From the IMG/VR virus record IMGVR_UViG_3300024272_002379: a stretch of DNA of 64,000 nt, one strand, 5' to 3'. The number at the start of each line of letters is the position of its first letter. The first letter of the stretch is position 1. A program made the translations under genes and the position numbers. Below are positions 533 to 47,910 of this stretch, piece by piece. This DNA is from a virus. Taxonomy: Duplodnaviria > Caudoviricetes. Under the pieces are notes generated by a model that saw nothing but the letters and a program-made list of their open reading frames with translations, did no database searches and was not told where the DNA came from.

Positions 533-2181
533 TATACCACCTCACCGTTCAACTCATCTAAAATTTGCTCCAACAAGGCAATTTCCTGTTCAAGTTTTTC
601 ATCGGTATTGATATATTGAACTGTAACATTGTCTGCACAAAAATATGTTGGTTCATATTTAATATAAGAAAATGGTCCTAATACAGCCCCAAATAACCTT
701 ATGTCTCCTAAACCACGATTTGAATTACCTGTAGTATGAGTAGAGTAAACAATTATTCGAAAAAATTTATATCTTATATTAGATACTAATTCATAGTCAT
801 AATATTTGACGTCATCATCAGGTAACACATCCGTTAATAGCGTATCAAAATTTATACCATCTTCAGAGGCTTGAACTTCAAAATCCTTACATCTATTAAC
901 AGAACCGTATTTTATATTACGTAAACTTATTTTGTCTATTTTTCTTACTTTACTGTCAATAAATTCTATTTGTATATAATCTGATACTGTATTGTTTGCA
1001 AACCAACCTGTTGAATCACTTCTATCAAATGCATAATACCCTTTATATGCCGTAGAATATTCACTACCTTGTGTAACAATACAAGTATTGTTGTAGTAAT
1101 TATTCATTTGAGGCACCAATCCATACACTGTGTCATTTTCCGTGTTAATATTGAGATTGGGTACACAAAAAGTATTAATGCCATCTCCACCAAAATAATT
1201 ATAACTACCAAATTCATTTAGTATATGCTCAGCTAAATATGTGTAATCTGCAATATTATATTCGCTACCATCACATGCTAAATAATGCTTGGGAACTTCC
1301 ATGCCCATGTGAGAGATTGTATGACCTACAGGTGTATCTTCAATGCCAATAACTTCATTTTCATATCCTAAAATATTAAGATTATATTGCTTACCATATT
1401 CAATAGAAGAATTAACGAATTCCATATCAGCAGTGTAATTTGACAATATTTCTTCTTGAGCAAGAATTCTGTCGTAAATTCTTATTCGATACATATTTCC
1501 TTGAAAATTAGCTGAACCGCTATAAGAACGTCTGCCTATATATGTTCCTGTAAAAGTTGATGTATTCCAAGTATCAGTTTTGTCTTGCTCTTCAAGTTTT
1601 ACGCCGTTTACATATATAGTCATAGTGTCTTCGTTTTCATAACAAATAGTTAGCAAGTTTACTTTGTTTGTTAATTCAGAAAAATCGTAAAGAAAAGTTT
1701 TGCCTCCTTTGTGTCTTCCGCTAAAATAAGTACTCCAATATCCGCAAACTATTCGTGGACTATAGTTTTCAAAAAATACAATTTGATTTTTTGAGCTATC
1801 AAATTGCAATAAAAACTCTAATGTTACTGGATATTGTATCTTAATATCTTGTGCGTGCAAATATTGGCTATTTCCAAAAACACCTTTTTTATTGTTAATA
1901 AAAACTCCATTATTTTGAGCATATTGTTCATTATTAATAACGTTATAAACATAGCTAACATCAGGACTTCTATAAGAATCCAGAAAATCTATGTAGTATG
2001 TTAGACCCTCAGTAATAATACCATTACAAGGGTCATAATCATCTACAAAGATAAAATTACTTCTGTTAAGTTGTCTTCTGATTTTGTTATCAGCAGCATC
2101 AATATATTCAAGTGCTCTTCTGTTATTTTCAGATAAGGCTAATTCTAAGTTAGCCTTATCAATAGCCTTACCTTCCGCCAT
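532..2181 (-). CDS. tail fibre / receptor-binding protein with LamG-like, tail-collar and F5/8 type C (discoidin) domains
   Basis: LamG-type motif IYVNG...YIGRR...FQGNMYRIRIYDRIL; collar motif TPVGHTISHMG...YLACDGSEYNIADY...FGGDGINTFCVPNL; discoidin motif YYAFDRSDSTGW...YIQIEF...KDFEVQASEDGINF...YKFFRII. Confidence 0.8.
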   Translation of the reverse strand: MAEGKAIDKANLELALSENNRRALEYIDAADNKIRRQLNRSNFIFVDDYDPCNGIITEGLTYYIDFLDSYRSPDVSYVYNVINNEQYAQNNGVFINNKKGVFGNSQYLHAQDIKIQYPVTLEFLLQFDSSKNQIVFFENYSPRIVCGYWSTYFSGRHKGGKTFLYDFSELTNKVNLLTICYENEDTMTIYVNGVKLEEQDKTDTWNTSTFTGTYIGRRSYSGSANFQGNMYRIRIYDRILAQEEILSNYTADMEFVNSSIEYGKQYNLNILGYENEVIGIEDTPVGHTISHMGMEVPKHYLACDGSEYNIADYTYLAEHILNEFGSYNYFGGDGINTFCVPNLNINTENDTVYGLVPQMNNYYNNTCIVTQGSEYSTAYKGYYAFDRSDSTGWFANNTVSDYIQIEFIDSKVRKIDKISLRNIKYGSVNRCKDFEVQASEDGINFDTLLTDVLPDDDVKYYDYELVSNIRYKFFRIIVYSTHTTGNSNRGLGDIRLFGAVLGPFSYIKYEPTYFCADNVTVQYINTDEKLEQEIALLEQILDELNGEVV

Positions 2182-2183
2182 AA

Positions 2184-2582
2184 TTATTCACTCCAAATTC
2201 CAGCTATCATAGCAGTAATTTCTTCATCACTGTAGCTTTCTAAAGTTACTGTAATACCTGCAAGTAATTCATCAATTTCTGTTTTATTGTAGTAGTTGCT
2301 TAAATCTACAGAGCCTGCATCAACCTGTCCTAAGATTTCCCAACCAACACCTTCTTTGTAAACATATTCGTTATAGATGTTATTAGTGATTGTTGATAAA
2401 TCACTTTTTACAAGGTAGATAGTAGTTGTTGAGATGTCCGATTCAGGTAATGCATCAACCCACTTGATGTCAATAACTTTAACGTTAGCAATTTGGGCTT
2501 CTACCCATTCTTTCATTTTTGTGTTGTTTTGTGACATAGCAGCTTGAAGATTGCTCATGCTTAATGTTTTTTGGTCAGCCAT
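2184..2582 (-). CDS. tail fibre-associated protein
   Basis: VDALPESDISTTTIYLV...YNEYVY...WEILG...VDLSNYYNKTEID motif common in phage fibre proteins. Confidence 0.6.
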   Translation of the reverse strand: MADQKTLSMSNLQAAMSQNNTKMKEWVEAQIANVKVIDIKWVDALPESDISTTTIYLVKSDLSTITNNIYNEYVYKEGVGWEILGQVDAGSVDLSNYYNKTEIDELLAGITVTLESYSDEEITAMIAGIWSE

Positions 2583-2594
2583 TATTTTGTCCTC

Positions 2595-3299
2595 CTATAA
2601 TAATCTTTGATAATACGGAACGATAATATTTATTATCTGTTCTCCGTCTGGGTACTTAATTTTCACATTATATTCTCCAGATTGAGTGAATGTACCTTTA
2701 ATATATCCTGGCATGTACATTAAAGCATCTGGAAGATTAGTTACGTCTATTACACTATCTGATAACTTTATTTCTATAAAACAGTTCTTTTGAACTACAA
2801 TAGACATATCAGAATAATCCGTTATTTTTTCAGGTATTACAACTTGCACCTTACTATTTACATTAACAGACACACCAGCAAATGTTAAAACACTTTCTTT
2901 TTGTTCTGAGTCAAGAACAATTGCCGATTTTGGATTGTATTTAATATTGGTTGACTGCAATTTTGACACGTACACTTCTTTGATTTTACATTCTGGATTT
3001 TGCTTGTCATTTGCAACAGCATTCCTTATACACATAAAAGTTTGCGGTTTAAGAGATTCGTACTCTTTTTCTTTATACACTTGAACAGTATAAGGAATTA
3101 ACCCATTTGAATAGTGTATTTTTGTATTATTTAAAATATTTGGATTATTGGTATGTAACGGATAAACGAATGCTTCACTTCTATTTCTCATGATACAGAT
3201 AGGATATTCGTTTTCATGTATTACAAATGCATGTCCATGCTCTGAGATAAAATTTTTAACATTTATATTTTTTACAAATGCTTTTCCGTCAAAATTCAT
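2595..3299 (-). CDS. hypothetical structural protein, possible C-terminal Ig-like domain
   Basis: C-terminal NLPDAL...GYIKGTFTQSGEYNVKI resembles putative Ig domain; context. Confidence 0.5.
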   Translation of the reverse strand: MNFDGKAFVKNINVKNFISEHGHAFVIHENEYPICIMRNRSEAFVYPLHTNNPNILNNTKIHYSNGLIPYTVQVYKEKEYESLKPQTFMCIRNAVANDKQNPECKIKEVYVSKLQSTNIKYNPKSAIVLDSEQKESVLTFAGVSVNVNSKVQVVIPEKITDYSDMSIVVQKNCFIEIKLSDSVIDVTNLPDALMYMPGYIKGTFTQSGEYNVKIKYPDGEQIINIIVPYYQRLL

Positions 3300-3310
3300 A
3301 TCATCACATC

Positions 3311-4867
3311 CTAACTGATAAATTTAGGATAAATAGTAATTGGACTAGCTCCTGTTATAGTAAGACCGATTTGTTGTTTGCCCATTCCATTGTATGTAAA
3401 TCTTAATGTCGAAGTATTATTTTCTGCAAACACCGCTGGACCACTAATTGTAAGTTCAAATATACCAACAAAGTGTTCTTCGAGATAGTTCAATGCAGAG
3501 AATTCTATGTATGTACTAATTGATGAACCTGTATAATCATAGTACTCCTTTTCGAATTCAATTTCAACTGATTGTGCATCTTCCATGTTAATCATATGAA
3601 CTGAACTATCAGTTTTAAGATACCAAACTCTTTGAAGTTCATCTAATCCCACTGAGTAGCACCCTGTGATTTCAAAATTAGTAGATTCGTATCTTAATGT
3701 TGTCTGATTGAATTTCAGAATCTGGAATGCATTTTGCTTAGCAATTAGCAAATGTTCTTTAGATTCATTATAGATAAAACCACCGATTTGTTTAGCTTCA
3801 TCTATTTGATTATATCCTGTAAAAGTCAAACTTGTTGCAGAATTAATTCGAAATGTATAAATACCTTGAGTAGCTATAAAGCTACCGTGCTCGTAATTGT
3901 ATCTATACACAACTACATTAAGATATTTAATGCCATTAAAATCAGCGATAAAATTCCTAACTGTATTATATTGAGAATTATTATAACTTGCAACCGTGTC
4001 AAAGAAATCTATTTTAGTTTTCCCTCCGCTCCATGCAATTGTAGTTTTTTGCATCGTAAATCCTTCAGCGTAAGTTTTACTTGTATCAAATTGATAAAAA
4101 TCAATTGGCTGAGCTGGGTCAGTTACATTACACAAGAATAAACCAAATGTATTATCATCTATCTGATAAGGATTATCACTAATATTAGTTAAATAATAAT
4201 TACCACCTATATCTGATTGTCCTCTAAATATTGCTTGAGATGTACTAAACCCATGAGATGATTTATTTAATGTTGCAGCGTACATATTTTGTTCGGAAGC
4301 ATATACAAAGTAAATATTAACATCATCTTCATGTATTTTTCTCAAACGAGCATAATTATAACTAGCTGATGTATACCATATTCTTGATACACTAAAATTG
4401 TCTTTATTAAAACTATATATTGAATATGTTGTATTACTTCTTTGAGTCCAAAATACATAATGGTCGTTTTGACCTACGAACTCTAAAAATTGATAATCGC
4501 CCATATTATATACATTAAGAACTGTAGTTTCTCCATTTTCGGTTTCTTCCATAGTGATTAATCTTGATTCTCTACTTCCAGAGATATATCCAGTAAGAGT
4601 TCTTAAGTAATATCTATTAGGGTACACAGAGTCTCTTAAAATGCCAATTTCGTCATTAGGGTCACTCCATGAGAAACCCTGTAAATATAACTGTTTTCTA
4701 GTACACAAACTATAAGGGGAGCCGTATAAATCACACACCTCAAAAGGTACAGGTGATAACTTTTCTTTTGTATAGTATTGTGTATTTAATAAAAACCCTT
4801 TAGTTGTTTCTATTACCTTAGGTGCTATGTCTGTAATTGTTGTATTTGCTGGATTTATTATTTTCAT
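3311..4867 (-). CDS. putative virion protein, beta-rich; paralog of 4878..6452
   Basis: 518 aa; shared N- and C-terminal segments with neighbour. Confidence 0.6.
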   Translation of the reverse strand: MKIINPANTTITDIAPKVIETTKGFLLNTQYYTKEKLSPVPFEVCDLYGSPYSLCTRKQLYLQGFSWSDPNDEIGILRDSVYPNRYYLRTLTGYISGSRESRLITMEETENGETTVLNVYNMGDYQFLEFVGQNDHYVFWTQRSNTTYSIYSFNKDNFSVSRIWYTSASYNYARLRKIHEDDVNIYFVYASEQNMYAATLNKSSHGFSTSQAIFRGQSDIGGNYYLTNISDNPYQIDDNTFGLFLCNVTDPAQPIDFYQFDTSKTYAEGFTMQKTTIAWSGGKTKIDFFDTVASYNNSQYNTVRNFIADFNGIKYLNVVVYRYNYEHGSFIATQGIYTFRINSATSLTFTGYNQIDEAKQIGGFIYNESKEHLLIAKQNAFQILKFNQTTLRYESTNFEITGCYSVGLDELQRVWYLKTDSSVHMINMEDAQSVEIEFEKEYYDYTGSSISTYIEFSALNYLEEHFVGIFELTISGPAVFAENNTSTLRFTYNGMGKQQIGLTITGASPITIYPKFIS

Positions 4868-20669: not shown

Positions 20670-20725
20670 ATTTGTTACCTCCTTTTAGAATGTCTTAATA
20701 TATAATATACCAGTAAGATGAATGA

Positions 20726-29201: not shown

Positions 29202-29227
29202 CCCGCCTTAATTTATAATATACTTCG

Positions 29228-32702: not shown

Positions 32703-33125
32703 TTATCTACCTCCCATATTATACAAAGCAGATATGAGTGCTGAATTGGCTCCGTAATCGTCTATTTTTCCCATAATTCCTGGGGATGCTACTACATCAT
32801 CAGCAAGTTCAGAAAATGCGACTGGATTACCTCCAGAAATGCGGCGGATTGCTTGACCAGCACCCGTCCCATGTGGAGCTATTGTACTATGCATATAACT
32901 GGCTGAAACTTTACCTAATGATGCCCTATTGTGTCCTTTAAGTCCCTCATTTGCCAAATTAAAGGCACCCATACCTCCAAAAACAAGGGCGGCTCCTGTG
33001 CCTGTCATTTTTCTTCTCACAAGAAGAGCTGATAGACCACCGCCTCCAGCAACAGTATTTTCTACTGTTAATGCTTTACCTACTCCAATAACTCCATCAG
33101 CAACTTGTTTCATTGTCATTGCCAT
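32703..33125 (-). CDS. Gly/Ala-rich hypothetical protein (start revised to MAMTMK)
   Basis: GGAGGTG SD precedes ATG at 33125. Confidence 0.6.
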   Translation of the reverse strand: MAMTMKQVADGVIGVGKALTVENTVAGGGGLSALLVRRKMTGTGAALVFGGMGAFNLANEGLKGHNRASLGKVSASYMHSTIAPHGTGAGQAIRRISGGNPVAFSELADDVVASPGIMGKIDDYGANSALISALYNMGGR

Positions 33126-36253: not shown

Positions 36254-36288
36254 TATAATATACCTGATTTTTACTATAAAATGCAACA
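36254..36288 (-). promoter_or_regulatory. SigA-like promoter containing GTATATTATA motif
   Basis: minus strand TTGCAT ... GTATATTATA, then SD. Confidence 0.5.
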
Positions 36289-36442: not shown

Positions 36443-36521
36443 TATTTATAATAACATTAAAATTGCACTTGTACAAGAAAAAATTTTATATATATATTTT
36501 TCAAGTCAAAGGTTAAAAATT

Positions 36522-36799: not shown

Positions 36800-36986
36800 A
36801 TTAAATTACCTCCTGTTCTATGATATACCACTTTTTGTTTCAAATTGCAAATTTGATACTGTTTTTGACAGGGGGTGTAGCTCCCGCAGGGAGCTAGAAA
36901 CCTAGTAAAATCAAGGGTTTTCAGGCTTTTATTAACAATTTTTGAAACCTAATGTAACGCACTTATAGTCTGTACTGTGCTATGTT

Positions 36987-37000: not shown

Positions 37001-37145
37001 AGCAGTATAGGGTATTTTTATATATATATTTTTGGGGGTGACCTGCTTTTAAATCTTTGTGATGTTCTTTAGTTCGATACCACACCCCTATGTGAGAAGA
37101 TTGAACAACAAGGAACAAATAAAATTATATTAGGAGGTCATCATT

Positions 37146-39822: not shown

Positions 39823-40024
39823 TCATTAATATTACTGGTCCAATGAGTATATATGACCTTAAACTATTTTACTCACTGACATACATATACTAAAAATTAC
39901 CCCTAGTTGAACTTGAAATTACTCGCTGTGTATTTCTTGAAGAGCTAGGGGTAAGTATTTTACCCTTAACTACAATGAGAACTCAGTTTTACGTGCATGA
40001 TGAGCACAGAAAGGATGGTCTATT

Positions 40025-41257
40025 ATGACAACAAATGAAAGAATTCAGGAACTTATCAACTTAGTAAATCGTTATGACTGCTACATTGAGTATATTGATG
40101 ATTATCGTCAATACAAACAGGCAGAACGTGCTAATGGAAATATTGAGGCACGTTTTATCGAAGTATGTTCAGAACTTGGCATGGAAGTAACTTCATCTGA
40201 TTTTCACAATGTTTTATGGAAATCACGCTATGACACCATAGAAGAGGCTGTTAATAAACTTTTACAAGACAAAGGCTTTAATAAGGAGGAAACCAATATG
40301 ACAACAAACACAACACCAGCAAACAACACAAATAAGGAGGAAACAAAGATGATTACTAATACTGCAAGCAAGGCATTGGATATGGTTGAGCACATGAAGA
40401 AAGGTGAAACTACTTACAAGAAATCAAACTTAGCATTAGTGTTACTCAATATCAATACTGTTACAGAAAGATTAATGTATGTATGGGATAATGTCCAGCA
40501 CGTAACTCGCACATCAGATGAACTTTATATTAGCAAGGAGGACTTAGCTCAGTTCTTATTTGATGCAGACATTATTCAGCGTCACTTATCCAAAACAGAA
40601 CTCAAGAAGATTAAAAGACAGAAATTAGTAGATACTCTGTCTACTGCTGTTAATAATCTTATCAAGGCTGGTGTTATTACCCCTATGAAAACTGTAACCT
40701 TTGAAGAAGCTGAAAAGATAGTAGCCGCAATGCCTCCTGTAAAAGAACACACCCATGTTGCATACGGAAAGACTACTTCTATGGATATACTCGAACAGGT
40801 TATTCGCAATGCTAATAAGAACAATGACCGCAACTTCATTAGTGATTGGATGCTCACAAGTATTATCTCTAAGATAGTTACTGGTAACCCATTAAAAGGA
40901 TATGAGGATGGTGAACTTGTAGAATACTACAAAGCATTTACCGAAGCTCAGAAAGATAACATCAATGAGATAAAAGCAGAGTTCTTAAGAAAGAGTAATT
41001 TTATTCCTGTTAAAGATAAACATGATGAGAATAAAAACTCAGGATATATTATTCCAGCAGCATCATTAGTATATGGTAGACATATTTGGTTGGGATATGC
41101 ATGTGTATATCGCTTGAAAAAGGATATGAATGCTAGATACGAAGTATCCCTTAACGGCATCAAGAATACACAGACTGGTGAAACAACATTATTTACACTT
41201 GAAAACAAAGCAACATTATTCGCTAAATTAGACAGCGAGTATGTATTTATTGGGTAA
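40025..41257 (+). CDS. hypothetical protein with two internal in-frame SD-ATG starts
   Basis: 410 aa; leader has TGATGAG hairpin and AAAGGATGGT SD. Confidence 0.7.
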   Translation: MTTNERIQELINLVNRYDCYIEYIDDYRQYKQAERANGNIEARFIEVCSELGMEVTSSDFHNVLWKSRYDTIEEAVNKLLQDKGFNKEETNMTTNTTPANNTNKEETKMITNTASKALDMVEHMKKGETTYKKSNLALVLLNINTVTERLMYVWDNVQHVTRTSDELYISKEDLAQFLFDADIIQRHLSKTELKKIKRQKLVDTLSTAVNNLIKAGVITPMKTVTFEEAEKIVAAMPPVKEHTHVAYGKTTSMDILEQVIRNANKNNDRNFISDWMLTSIISKIVTGNPLKGYEDGELVEYYKAFTEAQKDNINEIKAEFLRKSNFIPVKDKHDENKNSGYIIPAASLVYGRHIWLGYACVYRLKKDMNARYEVSLNGIKNTQTGETTLFTLENKATLFAKLDSEYVFIG

Positions 41258-41311
41258 TAACTAAAAGCGGCCCGTTAGGGCCGCAACTCTACAAGAAAGG
41301 ATGGTACTATT

Positions 41312-41740
41312 ATGAATACAATATTTGACAAGTTTCTTACAATCCAGCACTGTGATTACTATGCTAATCAGGTAGCTAAAAAGCTTAATCTAAAGACTTA
41401 CTCATATTACTGGGATAATTCTTCTCAAATGCAGTTTCCTGGTAATTCTAATATCTTAAACTGGGGTGTTCTTAAATCATATGAGCCGTGGCGTATTAAG
41501 TTTAACTTAACTAAACCAGCTACTATTATGAAGATGGGATTAGAAGAATATGTATCTAAGAACCATGAGTTAAGATTTAATTTAACTATAAAGGGACTAA
41601 GTATTATCTATGTTATACAGTTTTATAATCCTAGTGATGATGGTTCTATGAATGCTGTAATAGATGAGAATACTAAATGTCTCTATGTAGAAGATAAGAC
41701 CACAGGGCAGTATTCTTTTGCCTTCGGCCCTGAGGTATAG
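41312..41740 (+). CDS. hypothetical protein
   Basis: 142 aa; AAAGGATGGT SD. Confidence 0.65.
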   Translation: MNTIFDKFLTIQHCDYYANQVAKKLNLKTYSYYWDNSSQMQFPGNSNILNWGVLKSYEPWRIKFNLTKPATIMKMGLEEYVSKNHELRFNLTIKGLSIIYVIQFYNPSDDGSMNAVIDENTKCLYVEDKTTGQYSFAFGPEV

Positions 41741-42534
41741 AGGTGTGCTTGTAACCTTGATAGGTACTAAACTGAACTACGTTCAGTTTAGCAGATATTT
41801 TCTTAAAAGTCAAGAGGTAACTCAAATAAAATCAGAGCGTTATCTGCTGTGTAAAGATAGCGGTTTAACGGAGCCACAAGACTATATTCCGTGGCACACG
41901 GACATTTATACGGGGATTTTGATATATCAACCCCTAATTTGTCTGTCCGTGGCGAACAATCTTAGGATTAGTAGCCCTCACAATGGAGCAAATTCTTGCG
42001 TAATAAGGCCCTTCGGGATTGAGTTGGCGTTACAAAGTCCGTAGAGATGAGATGATAATAGAATATTATACAGTCTCTCGACGAGGGTAGCTGGTCATCT
42101 TATTCTATTTTTGAGTATTTTATAACAAAATGTAACATAGTACTACTCATCGTAGTGTTACATTCTATATGAGGAGATATTCTCTTATATAGGTTATATT
42201 CCCCTCTTGACTCTATATACATGTATCTTATTACCTCTATTATATGGCTATGGTATGCTATGTTATTTATTATATACTATAGCCATTTTATATATTCATT
42301 TATCTAAGGTTTTCTTATATTCATATCTTATCTTTATGCCATATATTCTTTTATGGTTCTTAGAGATTTTATTCTATATTATTTAGGTTTTTAAGTTAAA
42401 TTATCTCTCCCTTCGGACTTAAATAATATACATGGTTTATTTCAAATATGTCGGAGGGTTTGAGGAATTTCTTTTAATTAGTATGGATTATCACCATATC
42501 TAACAGGCTATCGCCTGGTTTAAAGATTGGAGGA

Positions 42535-42873
42535 ATGTATATTATGGATGAAAGATTTGTTGCTATTATTGTATCTGCTATTATCGCTATTATATTTGCT
42601 TTAATATATCAGAGTATTGAAGATGCTTTCTTTACTGTGAAATATGATGAAGAAAATGATGAGGATGATACAGTAGAATACGAATTCATTGATGAAGACC
42701 TTTATCCTGGTTGTTTTGTTTATGACACTATTACAGGAGAAATCGTACAATACACTGGTGTTCATCTGGGTGAAGACAATAATAATTACGCTACCTGTGT
42801 ATCTATGAAAGATAATACAGTTCGCTATTATTATTGTTTATTTGAAACTATATTACATGTAAGACAGAAGTGA
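42535..42873 (+). CDS. small protein with N-terminal TM helix
   Basis: FVAIIVSAIIAIIFALIY; GGAGG SD. Confidence 0.6.
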   Translation: MYIMDERFVAIIVSAIIAIIFALIYQSIEDAFFTVKYDEENDEDDTVEYEFIDEDLYPGCFVYDTITGEIVQYTGVHLGEDNNNYATCVSMKDNTVRYYYCLFETILHVRQK

Positions 42874-42915
42874 TGAGCTGTCTTTAAAGAAAAAACGAAA
42901 GGTTGGTATACTATT

Positions 42916-45900
42916 ATGACAAACATTAATTTTGAAGATTTAAAGGTAACTGAATTGAAAGAGCTTTGCAGAAAGGCTAACATTAAAGGCTATTCTCGTA
43001 TGAAGAAAGCTGAACTCGTTGATGCTCTCAATAATAATAAAGAGGCTAAGAAAGTTATTCTTAATGAGGCTAAGACATTTGCTAAAAATGAATTAGGACG
43101 TGACTTTGGTAAAGCTGTATCTTTCTGGAAACAGTTACGTAGCATTAAATTCATGACTGCTAACGACTATACTGAAATGGTTGATAACTGGAAAATCCTT
43201 ATCAGTTTATTCCATATCGCTGAAGTTGACGGTACTCAGAATCGTGCTTTAACCGACTCTCTTATGGGTACTGCTGAATCTCTTCGTGATATCTTCTGTC
43301 CTGGAACTGATATCAGTGGTTATTCTGATGACGAACTTAAAGAGTTTATCGAATCATCAATCGAAGAGTTTTCATTATCTGTATTCTCTAAACGCTTAAA
43401 GAAAGAGAATACTGAAATCATTAAAATGAGCATGGACCATATTTCATTTAATGACCAGGGATTGGCATACTTTGACTCTACTAAAGCATCTAAATTCACT
43501 GGCAAAGAGGTTAGAGCTCATAAAACTGATATGCGTATCGTGGAATCATCTGAAGACGGTATCTCTCGTATGCTTATGAGCAGAGGATTATCATCTATCA
43601 CTGTATTTATGGGTAAAACTGCTCAGAAAGAAGAAGAGATGAAACTCATTAATGACTGTAAGAGAAACATCTTCAAAAATGGTTTTGTTGACATCTCTAC
43701 TGGCAAGCATTATATGTTCGCATTCCAGAATCCATCATCATGTCGTAAATCTAACTTCATGTTTGTTGAGGCAAACGACTGGAATGAAGTAGTTTCATTA
43801 TGGCTTGAGATTACTGGTCTTAAGACATGGGAAGAATTCCAGCGTGCATTCTTTGATGATGAGGGTAAAGTAGTTATGGCTAAGTTATTGGCTAGAATTT
43901 CTACTAGAGGTTCTAACTCATTTAACTTATCAAAGATTAGTCCTGTGTGGGCTGATAAGATTGCGAAATCTAATATCAGATATTGTAAAGACCCATCATG
44001 GACAATTAAGAGACCTTTCAAAACAATGAAAGGACCTGGTTGTATGGAAATGCAGGAAGACGTTGAACGTACAGTTACTCCTGGTGACGGTCAGATGATT
44101 GGCTCATTTGAATTCCATGCTCTTATGGCAGTTGCTTTAAGAGTTATCTCAGAGAATGAATACAATGAGTTCTCTATGTTATGGGAGAAAGCCAATAAGG
44201 ACGTTAAGAATGTAAAAGAGGGTTCTCGTCTTTACAAACTTATTAAGAAAATCCCAGGTGTATTCCAGCTTCGTCATGGTGAAAAGAAAGGTATCTGTGT
44301 AAGATACAATATTGAGGCTATTGATGAACTTAAGGATGTAAATGCTATCGTACCAGACAGTGTTCGTAAGTTCGTAGCTGGTGAATGGGATGAGTTCCCA
44401 TTGGAAATTTGTAATTATATCAAGAAGAAAGACCAGTGGGTAGCTTTAAATCCACAGTTCATTCAGGCTCTTGAATATGAAAATCCAAATGCTTTATTAC
44501 CTATTGTTAAGTTCTGGTTTGATTACATGAAAGACTCTCTCAGCGATATTGCTAAAGCTCAGCAGTTCCATGGTATTATTAAGAACTCTGATGATGAGGA
44601 GAATAAAACAATTGCTGGTAATCTTGTTACAGCTATGCGTACTTCATCTGATTTAATTGATGATGCACAGATTTGTAACTGGAGAAAAGACCAGTATCGT
44701 AAATTCATTTCTGATATGAAAATCGGTAGAATATTAGTTCCTGGTCAGTATACTTATATGGTATGTGACCCAGCATTCATTATCAATCAGGTATTTGGTC
44801 TCGATTTACCTCATCTTGCAGAGGGTGAATATTACCACAATGGTAAAGAATGTGAATGTGGATTATTCAGAAGTCCATTAATTCATCCAAGTGAGGCTCA
44901 GAGAGTTAAGTTATCTAACAATGAGGCTTATTGGTACATGCAGGATGTAATCGTCTTTAATGGTAAAGACGGTGCATGGGATAGAATGTCTGGGGCAGAT
45001 TTTGATGGAGATACCTGTGCTGTTATCACAAACGACACTGATTTTGGTAAGATTGTTGTTGACGGTATCAGACAATTATCATTTGATATCTGGGAAGAGG
45101 CACAGAAAGCTGTAAAGAAACCATTTAATATGGATAACTTTATTGAACATCTTGTAACTTCTGCTAAAGTTGATAGAACTGGTGTTATTACCAATTATGC
45201 TTCTAAAGCATTGGATATTAGTAATCATTTAAAGAGTGCTGTATACTTTGCTAAGTTATTAGGCTGTGAGAATATCACATTAATTCACCCACAGGCATTT
45301 GGTGAAAAGCTCGGTAGTGATTTCCAGCCTAAGACTGGTATTATTGATGGTGTGAAGACATTCATGCTCAAAGGATTTGTTGAGGCTAAATATAATTCAC
45401 AGACAAGACGTGTTGAATTTGCAGACACTGGTTTTGTTGGTACATTTGATTTCGATAAAATCCTTGAAATTGCAGATAATTATCTTAACCTTGTAGAGAT
45501 TTTAAGAATCTTACAGGGTAGAGAGATTGATGGTGCTAAGACTGGTGTATATGCAGAGGGTGTATCTGGTAATGACTTCATTGATGCTGTTAAGATTAAA
45601 TTCACTCCTCATGAAATGATTGTACGTCAGGAAACATTGGATAGAGAAGTTGCTTTATCTTCTAAATGTAATGAGTATTGGTCATTATCTCCTCTTGCAC
45701 GTATTCATGATTATGTAGTAATGCATGAAAATGAGATTATGGACTATTTAACAAATGGTTCTAATAAAATCTTCTTACTTCAGTCATTACTTACAGATGA
45801 GGAAGCTAATGCAATGAATACACCATATTTAATGCAGGATGGTAGTTATAAAACTCTTATTGACATTATGGCTATTCGTAAGAAAGCATATAACTCTAAG

Positions 45901-46650
45901 ATTTATGACACTATGAAGAATCTTACAGGTGATGATGCTTCTAATACTTTGAAAGAAATCAAAGATGTTGAGGTTGATGACTTGAATGAATTAGCTACAG
46001 CATTAAATATCAGCACCGAAATCGTAGCTGTTGCAGGCTATATTGCAACATACACTAAAGACAGTAAGCAGGGCGAGGGCTTGACATATGCATGGTTATT
46101 ATTCGATGAATTATTATCAGTATTTAGCCGTGGCAACAAGAAATTTGAGCTTTTCAGATTACCTTCTTCTGTTGAGAATGCTTATATTGAAAATAAGGTT
46201 CTCTATGTCAATGGGAACAAATACATCAACATTAATGCAAATGATTGCAATAACGTTGTAATTCAGGTAATTAATGGTAGACCTTACGGTTTAATCCACA
46301 AGCTTGTGGATAAAGTAGCATCTCCTAGAAAGAGCAACGTTACTTATGGTAGTGCAGTATATACTATTGGTACTTTAGGATTTAAATATCACATTGTAAG
46401 TGAGAATCCTAAAGATGAGTGGAAGAAACTTGTCAAAGAAAATGGTTATGTATTCGACATTACTATGGATGCTACAAATCGTGCAGTTATCAGCATTAAT
46501 GGCAAATCTATTTCTGCTCTTATGAGTGTTGGTGCAAGCTTTGACTTAATGAATAAGAAAGTTAAACTTGTAAATGATATGCAGAATCCTATTAAGGAAA
46601 CAAATGCATCTATTACAAATCTTGCTGTTATTATCATTGGCGAGGCTTAA
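42916..46650 (+). CDS. single-subunit two-barrel RNA polymerase (cellular RdRP / SPbeta YonO family) with N-terminal Rho_N-like domain
   Basis: catalytic MSGADFDGD (44986-45012); RdRP-family motifs TPGDGQMIGS, PGVFQLRHGEKKG, LNPQFIQALE, FRSPLIHPSE; N-terminal LKVTELKELCRKANIKGYSRMKKAELVDAL. Confidence 0.88.
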   Translation: MTNINFEDLKVTELKELCRKANIKGYSRMKKAELVDALNNNKEAKKVILNEAKTFAKNELGRDFGKAVSFWKQLRSIKFMTANDYTEMVDNWKILISLFHIAEVDGTQNRALTDSLMGTAESLRDIFCPGTDISGYSDDELKEFIESSIEEFSLSVFSKRLKKENTEIIKMSMDHISFNDQGLAYFDSTKASKFTGKEVRAHKTDMRIVESSEDGISRMLMSRGLSSITVFMGKTAQKEEEMKLINDCKRNIFKNGFVDISTGKHYMFAFQNPSSCRKSNFMFVEANDWNEVVSLWLEITGLKTWEEFQRAFFDDEGKVVMAKLLARISTRGSNSFNLSKISPVWADKIAKSNIRYCKDPSWTIKRPFKTMKGPGCMEMQEDVERTVTPGDGQMIGSFEFHALMAVALRVISENEYNEFSMLWEKANKDVKNVKEGSRLYKLIKKIPGVFQLRHGEKKGICVRYNIEAIDELKDVNAIVPDSVRKFVAGEWDEFPLEICNYIKKKDQWVALNPQFIQALEYENPNALLPIVKFWFDYMKDSLSDIAKAQQFHGIIKNSDDEENKTIAGNLVTAMRTSSDLIDDAQICNWRKDQYRKFISDMKIGRILVPGQYTYMVCDPAFIINQVFGLDLPHLAEGEYYHNGKECECGLFRSPLIHPSEAQRVKLSNNEAYWYMQDVIVFNGKDGAWDRMSGADFDGDTCAVITNDTDFGKIVVDGIRQLSFDIWEEAQKAVKKPFNMDNFIEHLVTSAKVDRTGVITNYASKALDISNHLKSAVYFAKLLGCENITLIHPQAFGEKLGSDFQPKTGIIDGVKTFMLKGFVEAKYNSQTRRVEFADTGFVGTFDFDKILEIADNYLNLVEILRILQGREIDGAKTGVYAEGVSGNDFIDAVKIKFTPHEMIVRQETLDREVALSSKCNEYWSLSPLARIHDYVVMHENEIMDYLTNGSNKIFLLQSLLTDEEANAMNTPYLMQDGSYKTLIDIMAIRKKAYNSKIYDTMKNLTGDDASNTLKEIKDVEVDDLNELATALNISTEIVAVAGYIATYTKDSKQGEGLTYAWLLFDELLSVFSRGNKKFELFRLPSSVENAYIENKVLYVNGNKYININANDCNNVVIQVINGRPYGLIHKLVDKVASPRKSNVTYGSAVYTIGTLGFKYHIVSENPKDEWKKLVKENGYVFDITMDATNRAVISINGKSISALMSVGASFDLMNKKVKLVNDMQNPIKETNASITNLAVIIIGEA

Positions 46651-46724
46651 TAATAATTATACTCCCTGTACTGCTAACGCAGTATGGGGAGTATTTGATT
46701 TTATGAAAGGAATGGTAAATAATT

Positions 46725-47000: not shown

Positions 47001-47813
47001 ATGATTACATTAGGCTCTTTTAAAGATATTTCAGATGAATATGATGAGGTATGGCTTATTGTACGTTCATTACAAAATACTCCATATGTTCCAAATACAA
47101 GTGTTTATCACGTTCCAGCATTAAGTCCATCGCCAGAATTGTTTCAAGATTATCTGGCATGGAGAGATGCTGGTATGTGGAATAAAGATATGTTTGAGAA
47201 ACGATATAAGCCACGTTTCTTAGAAGAAATGAAAAATATGATAGCTAAATGTGCATTAAACACACTGAAAAAACGCAGTAAGGATAAGCATATTCTACTT
47301 GCTTGTTATTGTAGAGATGAGGAAATGTGTCATAGAAGTCTTGTTTACCAATTGGTACAAGAAATGCAAGAAACATTTTATTTATTAATAGCAGGTTCTC
47401 GTGAATATGTTAATTATAATGAAATGTGTAAGGTTACTGATTTCTTGCTAAAGAATCAGGTTGCACAGAACAAACGCATTGTGATTGTATCTGGAGGTGC
47501 AAGAGGTGCTGATGCAATGGCAGAAAGATATGCAAAAGAAAGAGGATACCATTGTGAAGTATTTCCTGCTAAATGGTATAAAGATGACGGTAGCTATGAT
47601 AAAAGTGCTGGCTATCGCCGTAATGAAGATATGCATTTATTCTTAGCTGGCCCTTCGGACAAGGAAAGAGGTTGTGTCTGTTTCTGGGATATGACTTCAA
47701 AAGGAACTAAACATAATTTTAGTCTTTCTGTTAAATACGGTAATCCATTAAGAGTTTACGACGTTATTAATCACAGGTTCTTGTCAGAGGAAGAGGTAAA
47801 GCAGTACTCCTAG
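47001..47813 (+). CDS. DUF488 domain fused to YspA/SLOG-family domain
   Basis: N-terminal LSPSPELF...LLACYCRDEEMCHRSLV; C-terminal IAGSR, IVSGGARGADAMAERYA, FPAKW, AGYRRNEDM, FWDMTSKGT. Confidence 0.8.
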   Translation: MITLGSFKDISDEYDEVWLIVRSLQNTPYVPNTSVYHVPALSPSPELFQDYLAWRDAGMWNKDMFEKRYKPRFLEEMKNMIAKCALNTLKKRSKDKHILLACYCRDEEMCHRSLVYQLVQEMQETFYLLIAGSREYVNYNEMCKVTDFLLKNQVAQNKRIVIVSGGARGADAMAERYAKERGYHCEVFPAKWYKDDGSYDKSAGYRRNEDMHLFLAGPSDKERGCVCFWDMTSKGTKHNFSLSVKYGNPLRVYDVINHRFLSEEEVKQYS

Positions 47814-47877: not shown

Positions 47878-47910
47878 GGGCTGAGCTAATGCTCAGCCCT
47901 CTATTTTTTT
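47878..47910 (+). terminator. intrinsic terminator
   Basis: GGGCTGAGC-TAAT-GCTCAGCCC then TCTATTTTTT. Confidence 0.55.

Follow-up and report, generated by a model that had tools for sequence, protein, structure and literature searches.

A gp99-type two-barrel polymerase gene in the non-structural arm of an uncultured 213-kb phage genome

The window, i.e., the whole stretch of 64,000 nucleotides analysed here, comes from an uncultured phage with a 213-kb genome and carries a gene whose product (P0001) is, judged by its sequence, a catalytically intact single-subunit two-barrel polymerase of the cellular-RdRP/YonO-like clade. On the same kind of evidence P0001 is the counterpart of gp99 of Bacillus phage 0305phi8-36 and adds a member to an already known phage polymerase family, first described in 2007. 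We consider it likely that P0001 is a non-virion DNA-dependent RNA polymerase that is made early and transcribes later phage genes.

Conserved residues, domain layout and predicted fold

The gene has the features given below; the Pfam family calls were made at the curated cut-offs (RdRP 23.8, Rho_N 24.9 bits).

42916..46650, plus strand: polymerase gene P0001, a single uninterrupted ORF of 1244 aa (ORF list, translation)
42937..43032, plus strand: helix-extended-helix (HeH) of the Rho_N/SAP type, aa 8-39; Pfam Rho_N 28.9 bits against 24.9
43048..43395, plus strand: four-helix N-terminal region, aa 45-160, from the secondary structure of the model; outside the part aligned to RDR2 and QDE-1
43399..46158, plus strand: RdRP-like core, aa 162-1081, structural equivalent of RDR2 370-1111 and QDE-1 487-1347
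44083..44094, plus strand: GDGQ motif of the first barrel; D391-G392 invariant in alignments A3 and A4
44272..44292, plus strand: RHGEKKG motif, basic residues of the beta-like barrel; R453, K458 and G459 invariant
44368-44370, plus strand: K485, an invariant basic residue of the beta-like barrel
44869..44877, plus strand: R652-S-P654, the R-x-P motif of the beta'-like barrel; invariant
44998..45012, plus strand: DFDGD metal-binding loop, aa 695-699; D-x-D-G-D invariant in A3 and A4
45451..45546, plus strand: long helix ending in EIDGAKTG (model helix 802-832); D872 and K875 invariant
46144..46647, plus strand: C-terminal extension, aa 1077-1244, two small beta-rich domains

P0001 matches PF05183 (RdRP) at 83.4 bits (E 2e-23), and so do 37 of 38 divergent homologues, the best with an E-value of 6e-46; 77 full-length homologues have identities of 34-82%. 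This match and the ordered invariant motifs bear out the membership of the cellular-RdRP/YonO-like two-barrel clade claimed in an earlier note, and the catalytic DFDGD named there is present at aa 695-699. The GDGQ motif pairs with TDGCG of YonO and LDGQG of gp99 (hhalign), while R652-S-P654 and DFDGD are aligned to 'RSP' and DYDGD of QDE-1 (phmmer). D391, R453, K458 and K485 do not vary among 50 representatives, and RHGEKKG resembles the 'RHGxKG' motif of the beta subunit. Conserved charged residues of the beta-like barrel, both acidic and basic, belong to the 'eight invariant residues' (Ruprich-Robert and Thuriaux, 2010), and we infer that D391 and the lysines of P0001 are equivalent one-to-one to D837, K979 and K987 of Rpb2. 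The EIDGAKTG helix is probably the equivalent of the bridge helix, as it lies in the segment that aligns with the beta' and RPA1 chains.

The structure model spans aa 45-1244, and the VIA alignments begin at model residue ~118, corresponding to residue 162 of the full-length protein. In this model the predicted fold is nearest to that of the eukaryotic RNA-silencing polymerases, and the comparison with QDE-1 proposed earlier did return a fold with two double-psi beta-barrels like that of QDE-1 and RDR2.

The N-terminal head is probably a helix-extended-helix of the SAP/Rho_N type, so that the fused Rho_N-like domain described earlier is upheld: Rho_N, like RdRP, scores above its Pfam cut-off (E 1e-6), SAP gives a match with E 0.011, and in the PDB the best sequence matches are to Ku70 (SAP domain, E 0.002) and to Rho (N-terminus, E 0.12). 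The pattern L..L.v.ELk.l....gI.G.s.m.K.eLi..L is present in the head, and 65-66 of 160 full-length homologues have an HeH at the N-terminus. SAP domains bind dsDNA. The head may bind DNA, and would probably act as a tether that aids template engagement.

The family comprises about 250 representative clusters, mostly on ~210-kb contigs. One split relative is broken at the DFDGD codons by an insert that has features of a group I intron and carries a homing endonuclease gene. That homing introns hit catalytic codons in relatives fits a conserved and essential polymerase gene.

Genomic setting and promoter-like elements

The P0001 gene is located ~6 kb into the plus (non-structural) arm, and in L008 and L009 too the polymerase gene lies 6-8 kb past the divergent switch. 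Its surroundings are as follows.

42045..42534, plus strand: AT-rich, ORF-free gap of 490 bp upstream of the transcription unit
42535..42873, plus strand: small upstream ORF of 112 aa with a hydrophobic N-terminus and an acidic middle
46659..46694, plus strand: intrinsic terminator with a 16-bp stem, TAAC loop and T-run; RNAfold -26.2 kcal/mol

From its sequence, the terminator closes the transcription unit of P0001, and a hairpin with a U-tract is found at the matching position in L008, L009 and 0305phi8-36. The position in the plus arm, together with the shortness of the unit and its strong intrinsic terminator, makes it probable that the gene is expressed early, from this short plus-arm transcription unit. 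The 112-aa ORF is probably co-transcribed with the polymerase gene. A universal partner of the polymerase it is not, its conservation being weak and confined to L008 (35% over 52 aa). The gap upstream of the unit holds only a copy of the AT-rich element with three mismatches, at 42286. Neither a sigma70-family gene nor an Rpb2 domain was found in the phage genome; PF00940 (T7-type RNAP) gave no match, but its control was silent as well. Structured RNAs near the gene had previously been taken as a hint of RNA-templated activity. They are tRNAs, a tmRNA and a ROOL RNA, which are ordinary jumbo-phage cargo and show no link to the enzyme.

Promoters were searched for with exact k-mers in 58 intergenic gaps, with 12-mers allowing up to two mismatches, and with a Gibbs sampler set to motif widths of 14 and 20. 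None of these found a long phage-specific promoter; the output was limited to Shine-Dalgarno sequences, AT-rich runs and terminator hairpins, and the plus-arm intergenic regions share no long motif. Sigma-70-type sites around the polymerase gene were not enriched (64 against 69 in shuffles). The only recurrent element before the morphogenesis genes is GGTATATTATA, which resembles a sigma-A -10 box. Three copies carry a TTGCAW -35 element, with the full TTGCAW-N18 -35/-10 pair at the borders of the minus arm, while the interior minus-arm copies are without a -35 element. It is conceivable from the likeness to a -10 box and the -35 element in three copies that GGTATATTATA is read by host RNAP. 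As a statistically enriched element it was rejected, with 4 copies found against 3.43 expected; only its placement and the conservation of both the minus-arm elements and the border pairs in L008 are suggestive.

Target genes, template and alternative roles

In the reading that we favour, the product of the P0001 gene would transcribe phage DNA of the later classes (middle and/or late) and host sigma factors would not be needed. The minus-strand morphogenesis arm, which the earlier note had named as the target, was not borne out in this capacity: the proposal made for gp99 concerns middle promoters in the non-structural arm, and no long promoter was found. Given the best explanation, it is possible, if tentative, that P0001 reads the middle genes of the plus arm and that the minus arm is left to host RNAP, perhaps with a phage factor; the enzymology is the same and only the target genes differ. 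In agreement with this, a 21-bp class of middle promoters was proposed in connection with gp99 for the non-structural arm of 0305phi8-36 (PMC2147016), the late genes of P23-45 use host RNAP while its gp64 reads the middle genes, and minus-arm genes are preceded by the -10-like GGTATATTATA with -35/-10 pairs at the arm borders. On the other hand the searches brought up no long motif common to the plus-arm intergenic regions, the interior minus-arm copies should be poorly read by the host holoenzyme as they lack a -35, and YonO, the sole characterised relative, reads late structural genes.

The template may be questioned as well. The nearest solved structures, QDE-1 and RDR2, are of RNA- or ssDNA-templated enzymes, which counts against a DNA template, and QDE-1 and RDR6 have dual template activity. 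P0001 could by analogy be RNA-templated or dual-template like QDE-1 and, instead of being the main transcriptase, make antisense or dsRNA from transcripts of the phage or the host, for regulation or for conflict with the host or with rival phages. We regard this as unlikely: YonO has a strong preference for DNA as template, the HeH head belongs to the SAP type, the neighbours that were scanned gave no sign of a Dicer- or Argonaute-type partner, and a transcriptase fits both the early position, which is conserved, and the lack of sigma factors. DNA-templated transcription by P0001 is likewise favoured over a part in replication or recombination, in which it would make RNA primers or R-loops on ssDNA and not transcribe genes. 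On ssDNA, QDE-1 works together with RPA and a helicase, and the two-barrel enzymes include the replicative PolD; still, no replication genes are linked to P0001 in its immediate neighbourhood and the precedent of YonO is transcription, which makes such a role most improbable.

It is also very unlikely that P0001 is packaged in the virion and injected for early-gene transcription, as phi14:2 gp66 or the N4 vRNAP are. Its gene is among non-structural plus-arm genes, outside the morphogenesis arm, and mass spectrometry of the 0305phi8-36 virion assigned only orfs 205, 209 and 81 of the right arm to virion genes, with orf99 absent; on these grounds P0001 probably falls outside the virion-packaged class (crAss-like gp66 type). 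A better candidate for an injected polymerase, separate from P0001, is a tail-module protein of 3148 aa in which R-Y-P ... N-V-D-F-D-G-D is invariant in 16 homologues and which has a weak, sub-threshold match to PF00623 (E 0.017). Pfam, PHROGs, phmmer against the PDB and a PDB search with a profile of 16 sequences gave no support for a polymerase in this protein, BLAST found no similarity between it and P0001, and a search for its region in 0305phi8-36 gave no match. A homologue of the tail protein (P0233) and one of the polymerase (P0018) both have a longest contig of 95,667 bp, which may be the same one. If a tail-borne polymerase is real, the phage group would use two unrelated two-barrel polymerases per infection cycle.

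Relation to gp99, YonO and other known polymerases

The gp99 counterpart was recognised from the profile match (hhalign 99.9%, E 4e-36, 704 columns), the common gene order and the terminator after the gene. Annotated as a 'hypothetical DNA-directed RNA polymerase' (ORF099, 1218 aa), gp99 is similar in length to P0001 and also passes Pfam RdRP. Both phages have a ~215-kb genome with two opposed arms. In each of them the polymerase gene lies early in the non-structural arm, and behind it come a hairpin terminator, then a small ORF and a SLOG/YpsA-type gene. However, the identity in the core is only about 26%, gp99 is without a Rho_N/SAP head in Pfam, and its C-terminal ~360 residues are unaligned with P0001. 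It was proposed that gp99 reads a phage-specific middle promoter, and it is absent from the 0305phi8-36 virion proteins (PMC2147016).

Similarity to YonO of SPbeta is remote (hhalign 91%, E 9e-7, 415 columns). Both are single-chain two-barrel proteins in which the motifs DG, R..KG, R-x-P and DxDGD follow one another in the same order, but YonO has 839 aa, DNDGD, no Pfam RdRP match and no HeH, and P0001 is 400 aa longer and has an HeH head and a C-terminal extension. The assignment to the YonO family therefore stands for the broad two-barrel clade and fails for a close kinship, the match being far weaker than that to gp99; with its different architecture P0001 was rejected as a family member in the strict sense and can be called 'YonO-like' only in the wide usage of PMC2919709. 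That YonO is a DNA-dependent RNAP which transcribes late genes, as stated earlier, is confirmed by PMC5467207, where its dependence on DNA is strict and its preference for DNA templates strong. YonO is the only phage enzyme of the clade that has been studied and proven experimentally, remote as it is. By Pfam match and predicted fold alike, the eukaryotic RNAi polymerases are much closer to the gp99-type branch than to YonO. This branch is large and conserved in ~210-kb phages of a widespread group, and its members often have a SAP/Rho_N-type head. Enzymes of this type bear on how a minimal two-barrel polymerase finds promoters without sigma, and on whether phage enzymes related to the RNAi polymerases were already flexible in choosing between DNA and RNA templates.

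Neurospora QDE-1 and plant RDR2 have 12-18% identity to P0001, which exceeds them by the N-terminal HeH and helical bundle and by two C-terminal beta domains; the expected template of P0001 is phage dsDNA, whereas theirs is RNA or ssDNA. A logic that may be shared is found in P23-45, where the virion RNAP transcribes the gene for the non-virion RNAP (PMC10770324). The pair consists of the TMP-fused vRNAP gp96 and the nvRNAP gp64, and the phage studied here may similarly combine a tail-borne injected polymerase with a non-virion one, a single-chain two-barrel enzyme whose gene lies in the early region.

The polymerase, its fold and its family

The 1244-aa polymerase is encoded by one unbroken ORF at window 42916-46650 (+), as seen in the ORF list and the translation, and the gene contains no intron in the window. 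Pfam matches RdRP (PF05183) at aa 443-767 (E 2e-23, 83.4 bits) and Rho_N (PF07498) at aa 8-39 (E 1.1e-6, 28.9 bits), both above the curated cut-offs of 23.8 and 24.9 bits, respectively; SAP is also matched, more weakly. The DFDGD motif occupies aa 695-699. The earlier note, which had suggested this HMM search, was thus correct in the coordinates as well as in the RdRP, Rho_N and DFDGD features. At window position 46181 a C is found where the genome record has T, a difference that turns codon 1089 from Ala in the window into Val in the record. Residues that do not vary among 50 representatives (18-45% identity) are D391-G392, R453, K458-G459, K485, R652-x-P654, D695-x-D697-G698-D699, G756, and D872. 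They fit the pattern of catalytic residues expected of two-barrel polymerases (set described in PMC2919709), and judged by this agreement the enzyme looks catalytically intact.

A structure was predicted for residues 45-1244 using a 42-sequence alignment (mean pLDDT 86.5, pTM 0.78). The double-psi barrel fold, on which the earlier note had staked its assignment, is borne out by the model, for which the top PDB matches in Foldseek are maize RDR2 (E 3e-18), QDE-1 (about 1e-16), and Arabidopsis RDR2. Lower-ranked matches include crAss-like phi14:2 gp66 (3e-6), the non-virion RNAPs P74 gp62 and P32 gp64 (1e-4 to 5e-4), and bacterial beta' (about 1e-3). The structural match spans residues about 162-1081 (full-length numbering), and three parts lie beyond it:

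aa 8-39, helix-extended-helix (HeH) of Rho_N/SAP type
aa 45-160, four-helix region
aa 1077-1244, C-terminal extension

The family is large. There are 77 full-length homologues with 34-82% identity, many of them on contigs of 199-223 kb, and when 1.84 billion representatives were searched exhaustively, 253 homologous clusters reached E <= 1e-3 and 78 of them E <= 1e-30. The identical polymerase sequence is present on 15 contigs, no name is attached to the protein in public records, and the phage has no close DNA relative among 50,697 deposited phage genomes. The best matches in cultured phages are ORF099 of Bacillus phage 0305phi8-36 (gp99; 26.5% identity, in the core) and proteins of Enterocloster phages of ~100 kb (27%). 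The family profile matches gp99 with E 4e-36 over 704 columns but YonO, the polymerase of the SPbeta prophage, with only 91% probability (E 9e-7, 415 columns); similarly, Pfam RdRP is matched by gp99 (E 1.2e-18) and not by YonO. Of the assignment to a YonO/RdRP family, the RdRP part therefore holds, whereas the closeness to YonO does not. gp99 was reported to align over its full length with the RdRP family of RNAi, and was tentatively named a DNA-directed RNAP (Hardies et al., 2007, PMC2147016); later surveys put it in the YonO-like class (PMC2919709, PMC7824862). The 1244-aa polymerase is accordingly a new member of the already known, biochemically uncharacterised gp99 branch, and its central identification is not new, having been published for gp99 in 2007.

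Accessory domain and interrupted genes

In PDB sequence searches the HeH matched best the SAP domain of Ku70 (E 0.002) and the N-terminus of Rho (E 0.12). By an HMM built from it, 66 of the 160 full-length homologues carry the domain, 65 of them at the N-terminus (52/74 close homologues and 13/85 distant representatives). Pfam detected one of the two domains, Rho_N or SAP, in 7 members of a diverse set of 38, and neither in gp99 nor in YonO. By these profiles the HeH recurs in the family as an accessory domain without being universal, and we infer a role in DNA tethering.

In about a dozen representative clusters (split pieces P0069/P0224, P0082, P0084, P0099, P0109, and others) the polymerase ORF is broken at a single, precise position, between the codons for GG and those for DFDGD, so that N-terminal pieces end in '...MGGASL*' and C-terminal pieces begin with '...LDFDGD'. 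On the related contig L016 (IMGVR_UViG_3300014203_003374, 2140-3358) about 1.2 kb is inserted between GGT (Gly) and the GAC of DFDGD. The insert codes for a 263-aa HNH/homing endonuclease (phrog_559, 8e-45; 'homing endonuclease', 2e-26; 'intron encoded nuclease', 2e-17), and its end matches the whole group I intron model RF00028 at a sub-threshold 23.6 bits (E 0.0018; gathering score 50). The last base is U in the 5' exon and G in the insert, as is typical of group I introns. The insert probably represents a mobile group I intron placed within the codons of the catalytic loop, and the split polymerases are, on the example of this one contig, most simply read as intron-interrupted genes and not as two-protein enzymes.

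Genomic setting and candidate target genes

The phage record (213,152 bp, IMG/VR) is rated complete by CheckV. In window orientation a plus-strand non-structural arm extends from about 36,300 to 121,500 and is flanked on both sides by a long minus-strand morphogenesis arm with giant ORFs of 3148, 2118, 1994, and 1898 aa. A region of the 1994-aa protein, encoded next to the 3148-aa one, matches phrog_1706 ('CRISPR/Cas system associated'), and the 1898-aa ORF encodes a tail lysin. Within the plus arm the polymerase gene is found after about 6 kb, in a position equivalent to that in the related contigs L008 and L009, and is followed by these features:

46659-46694, terminator-type hairpin (16-bp stem and T-run) directly 3' of the polymerase gene
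47001-47813 (+), SLOG/YpsA-type gene (DUF488-N3a and YAcAr domains) just 3' of the polymerase gene
53640-58891 (+), tmRNA (tag ANRPMLAAA), ten tRNAs, and ROOL RNA
57117-57810 (+), position of this ROOL RNA (231 bits)

A hairpin with U-tract also follows the polymerase gene in L008, L009, and 0305phi8-36. The SLOG/YpsA-type gene is found in the equivalent place in L008, L009, L010 (there as a DUF1848 fusion), and 0305phi8-36 (gp97), where the order polymerase, small ORF, SLOG/YpsA-type gene is the same; the neighbourhood is conserved. Three early plus-arm genes, including that of the polymerase, share the translation-start leader CTATTATGACAA (40020-40034, 41307-41321, 42911-42925, +). GC-rich hairpins with TAAC-type tetraloops and T-runs are very common between genes of both arms (e.g., 41267-41284 and 47878-47899, besides 46659-46694), and their abundance points to many short transcription units with intrinsic terminators.

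Two promoter-like classes were found, each confined to one arm:

36254-36264, 36819-36829, 32708-32716, 29214-29224, 20701-20711 (-), GGTATATTATA-type elements
about -1880 and 121048(+), further GGTATATTATA-type elements (window-frame genome coordinates)
36484-36501 (+), TTTTATATATATATTTTT
37016-37070 (+), TTTTATATATATATTTTT with the block that follows it

GGTATATTATA (core GTATAWTAT) precedes by 6-39 nt the minus-arm genes with start-codon ends 36249, 32700, 29201, 20669, and -1927; for the GGTATATTATA-type elements as listed, the distance to the minus-arm start codon is 6-48 nt. It is conserved in L008 in the first two minus-arm units, and a TTGCAW element 18 nt further upstream is confined to the arm borders (36257(-), 36824(-), 121055(+)). 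The class resembles a sigma-A -10 box and is no more frequent than expected by chance (4 observed vs. 3.4 expected), only placement and conservation being suggestive; for these reasons it could not be attributed to the polymerase. The AT-rich TTTTATATATATATTTTT has two perfect copies (36484 and 37016, +) near the start of the plus arm. It is conserved in both L008 and L009, and the block GGGGTGACCTGCTTTTAAATCTTTGTGATGTT after the second copy is nearly identical in L008. Together they could form an early promoter with leader, or a small RNA. Three motif searches of the phage genome revealed no long phage-specific promoter.

YonO, the only characterised relative, is an RNAP that depends strictly on DNA and transcribes 37 late genes (PMC5467207), in line with the late-gene role that the earlier note had given it. 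Neither a sigma70-family gene nor an Rpb2 domain was found in the phage genome. We consider it likely that the 1244-aa polymerase is a non-virion, DNA-dependent RNAP, which would be synthesised early in infection, be absent from the virion, and then transcribe later gene classes from DNA. These may include the minus-strand morphogenesis arm, as the earlier note had proposed; a serious alternative is that the polymerase reads middle genes of the plus arm. The gp99 gene is monocistronic and in the early region, and a 21-bp middle promoter with 14 copies in the non-structural arm, where orfs 205, 209, and 81 were the only virion genes listed, was proposed as the gp99 target (Hardies et al., 2007, PMC2147016). 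It is conceivable, though unlikely, that the polymerase uses an RNA template, for which the fold leaves room, dual activity being described for QDE-1 as well as for RDR6 (PMC9508822). The nearby tmRNA, ten tRNAs, and ROOL RNA belong to the ordinary cargo and show no evident connection with the polymerase.

A candidate tail-borne polymerase

One further protein may bear on a non-virion role of the 1244-aa enzyme:

G000:C1:190936-200382 in the phage's own genome record (window frame -30681..-21235), minus strand, 3148-aa tail-module protein

It carries a motif pair, R-Y-P ... N-V-D-F-D-G-D, that is invariant in 16 homologues, and the segment gives a sub-threshold match to PF00623 (E 0.017). It has no similarity to the 1244-aa polymerase, and searches against Pfam, PHROGs, and the PDB (the last by sequence and by profile) gave nothing else. 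The gp99 branch, large, uncharacterised, and near the eukaryotic RNAi polymerases, is possibly one half of a two-polymerase relay. In phage P23-45 the gene of the non-virion RNAP is transcribed by a tail-fused virion RNAP (PMC10770324). If the candidate second polymerase is real, the two phages would be alike in pairing a tail-borne with a non-virion polymerase; the enzymes of P23-45 are paralogues, however, whereas those of the present phage would come from unrelated lineages.
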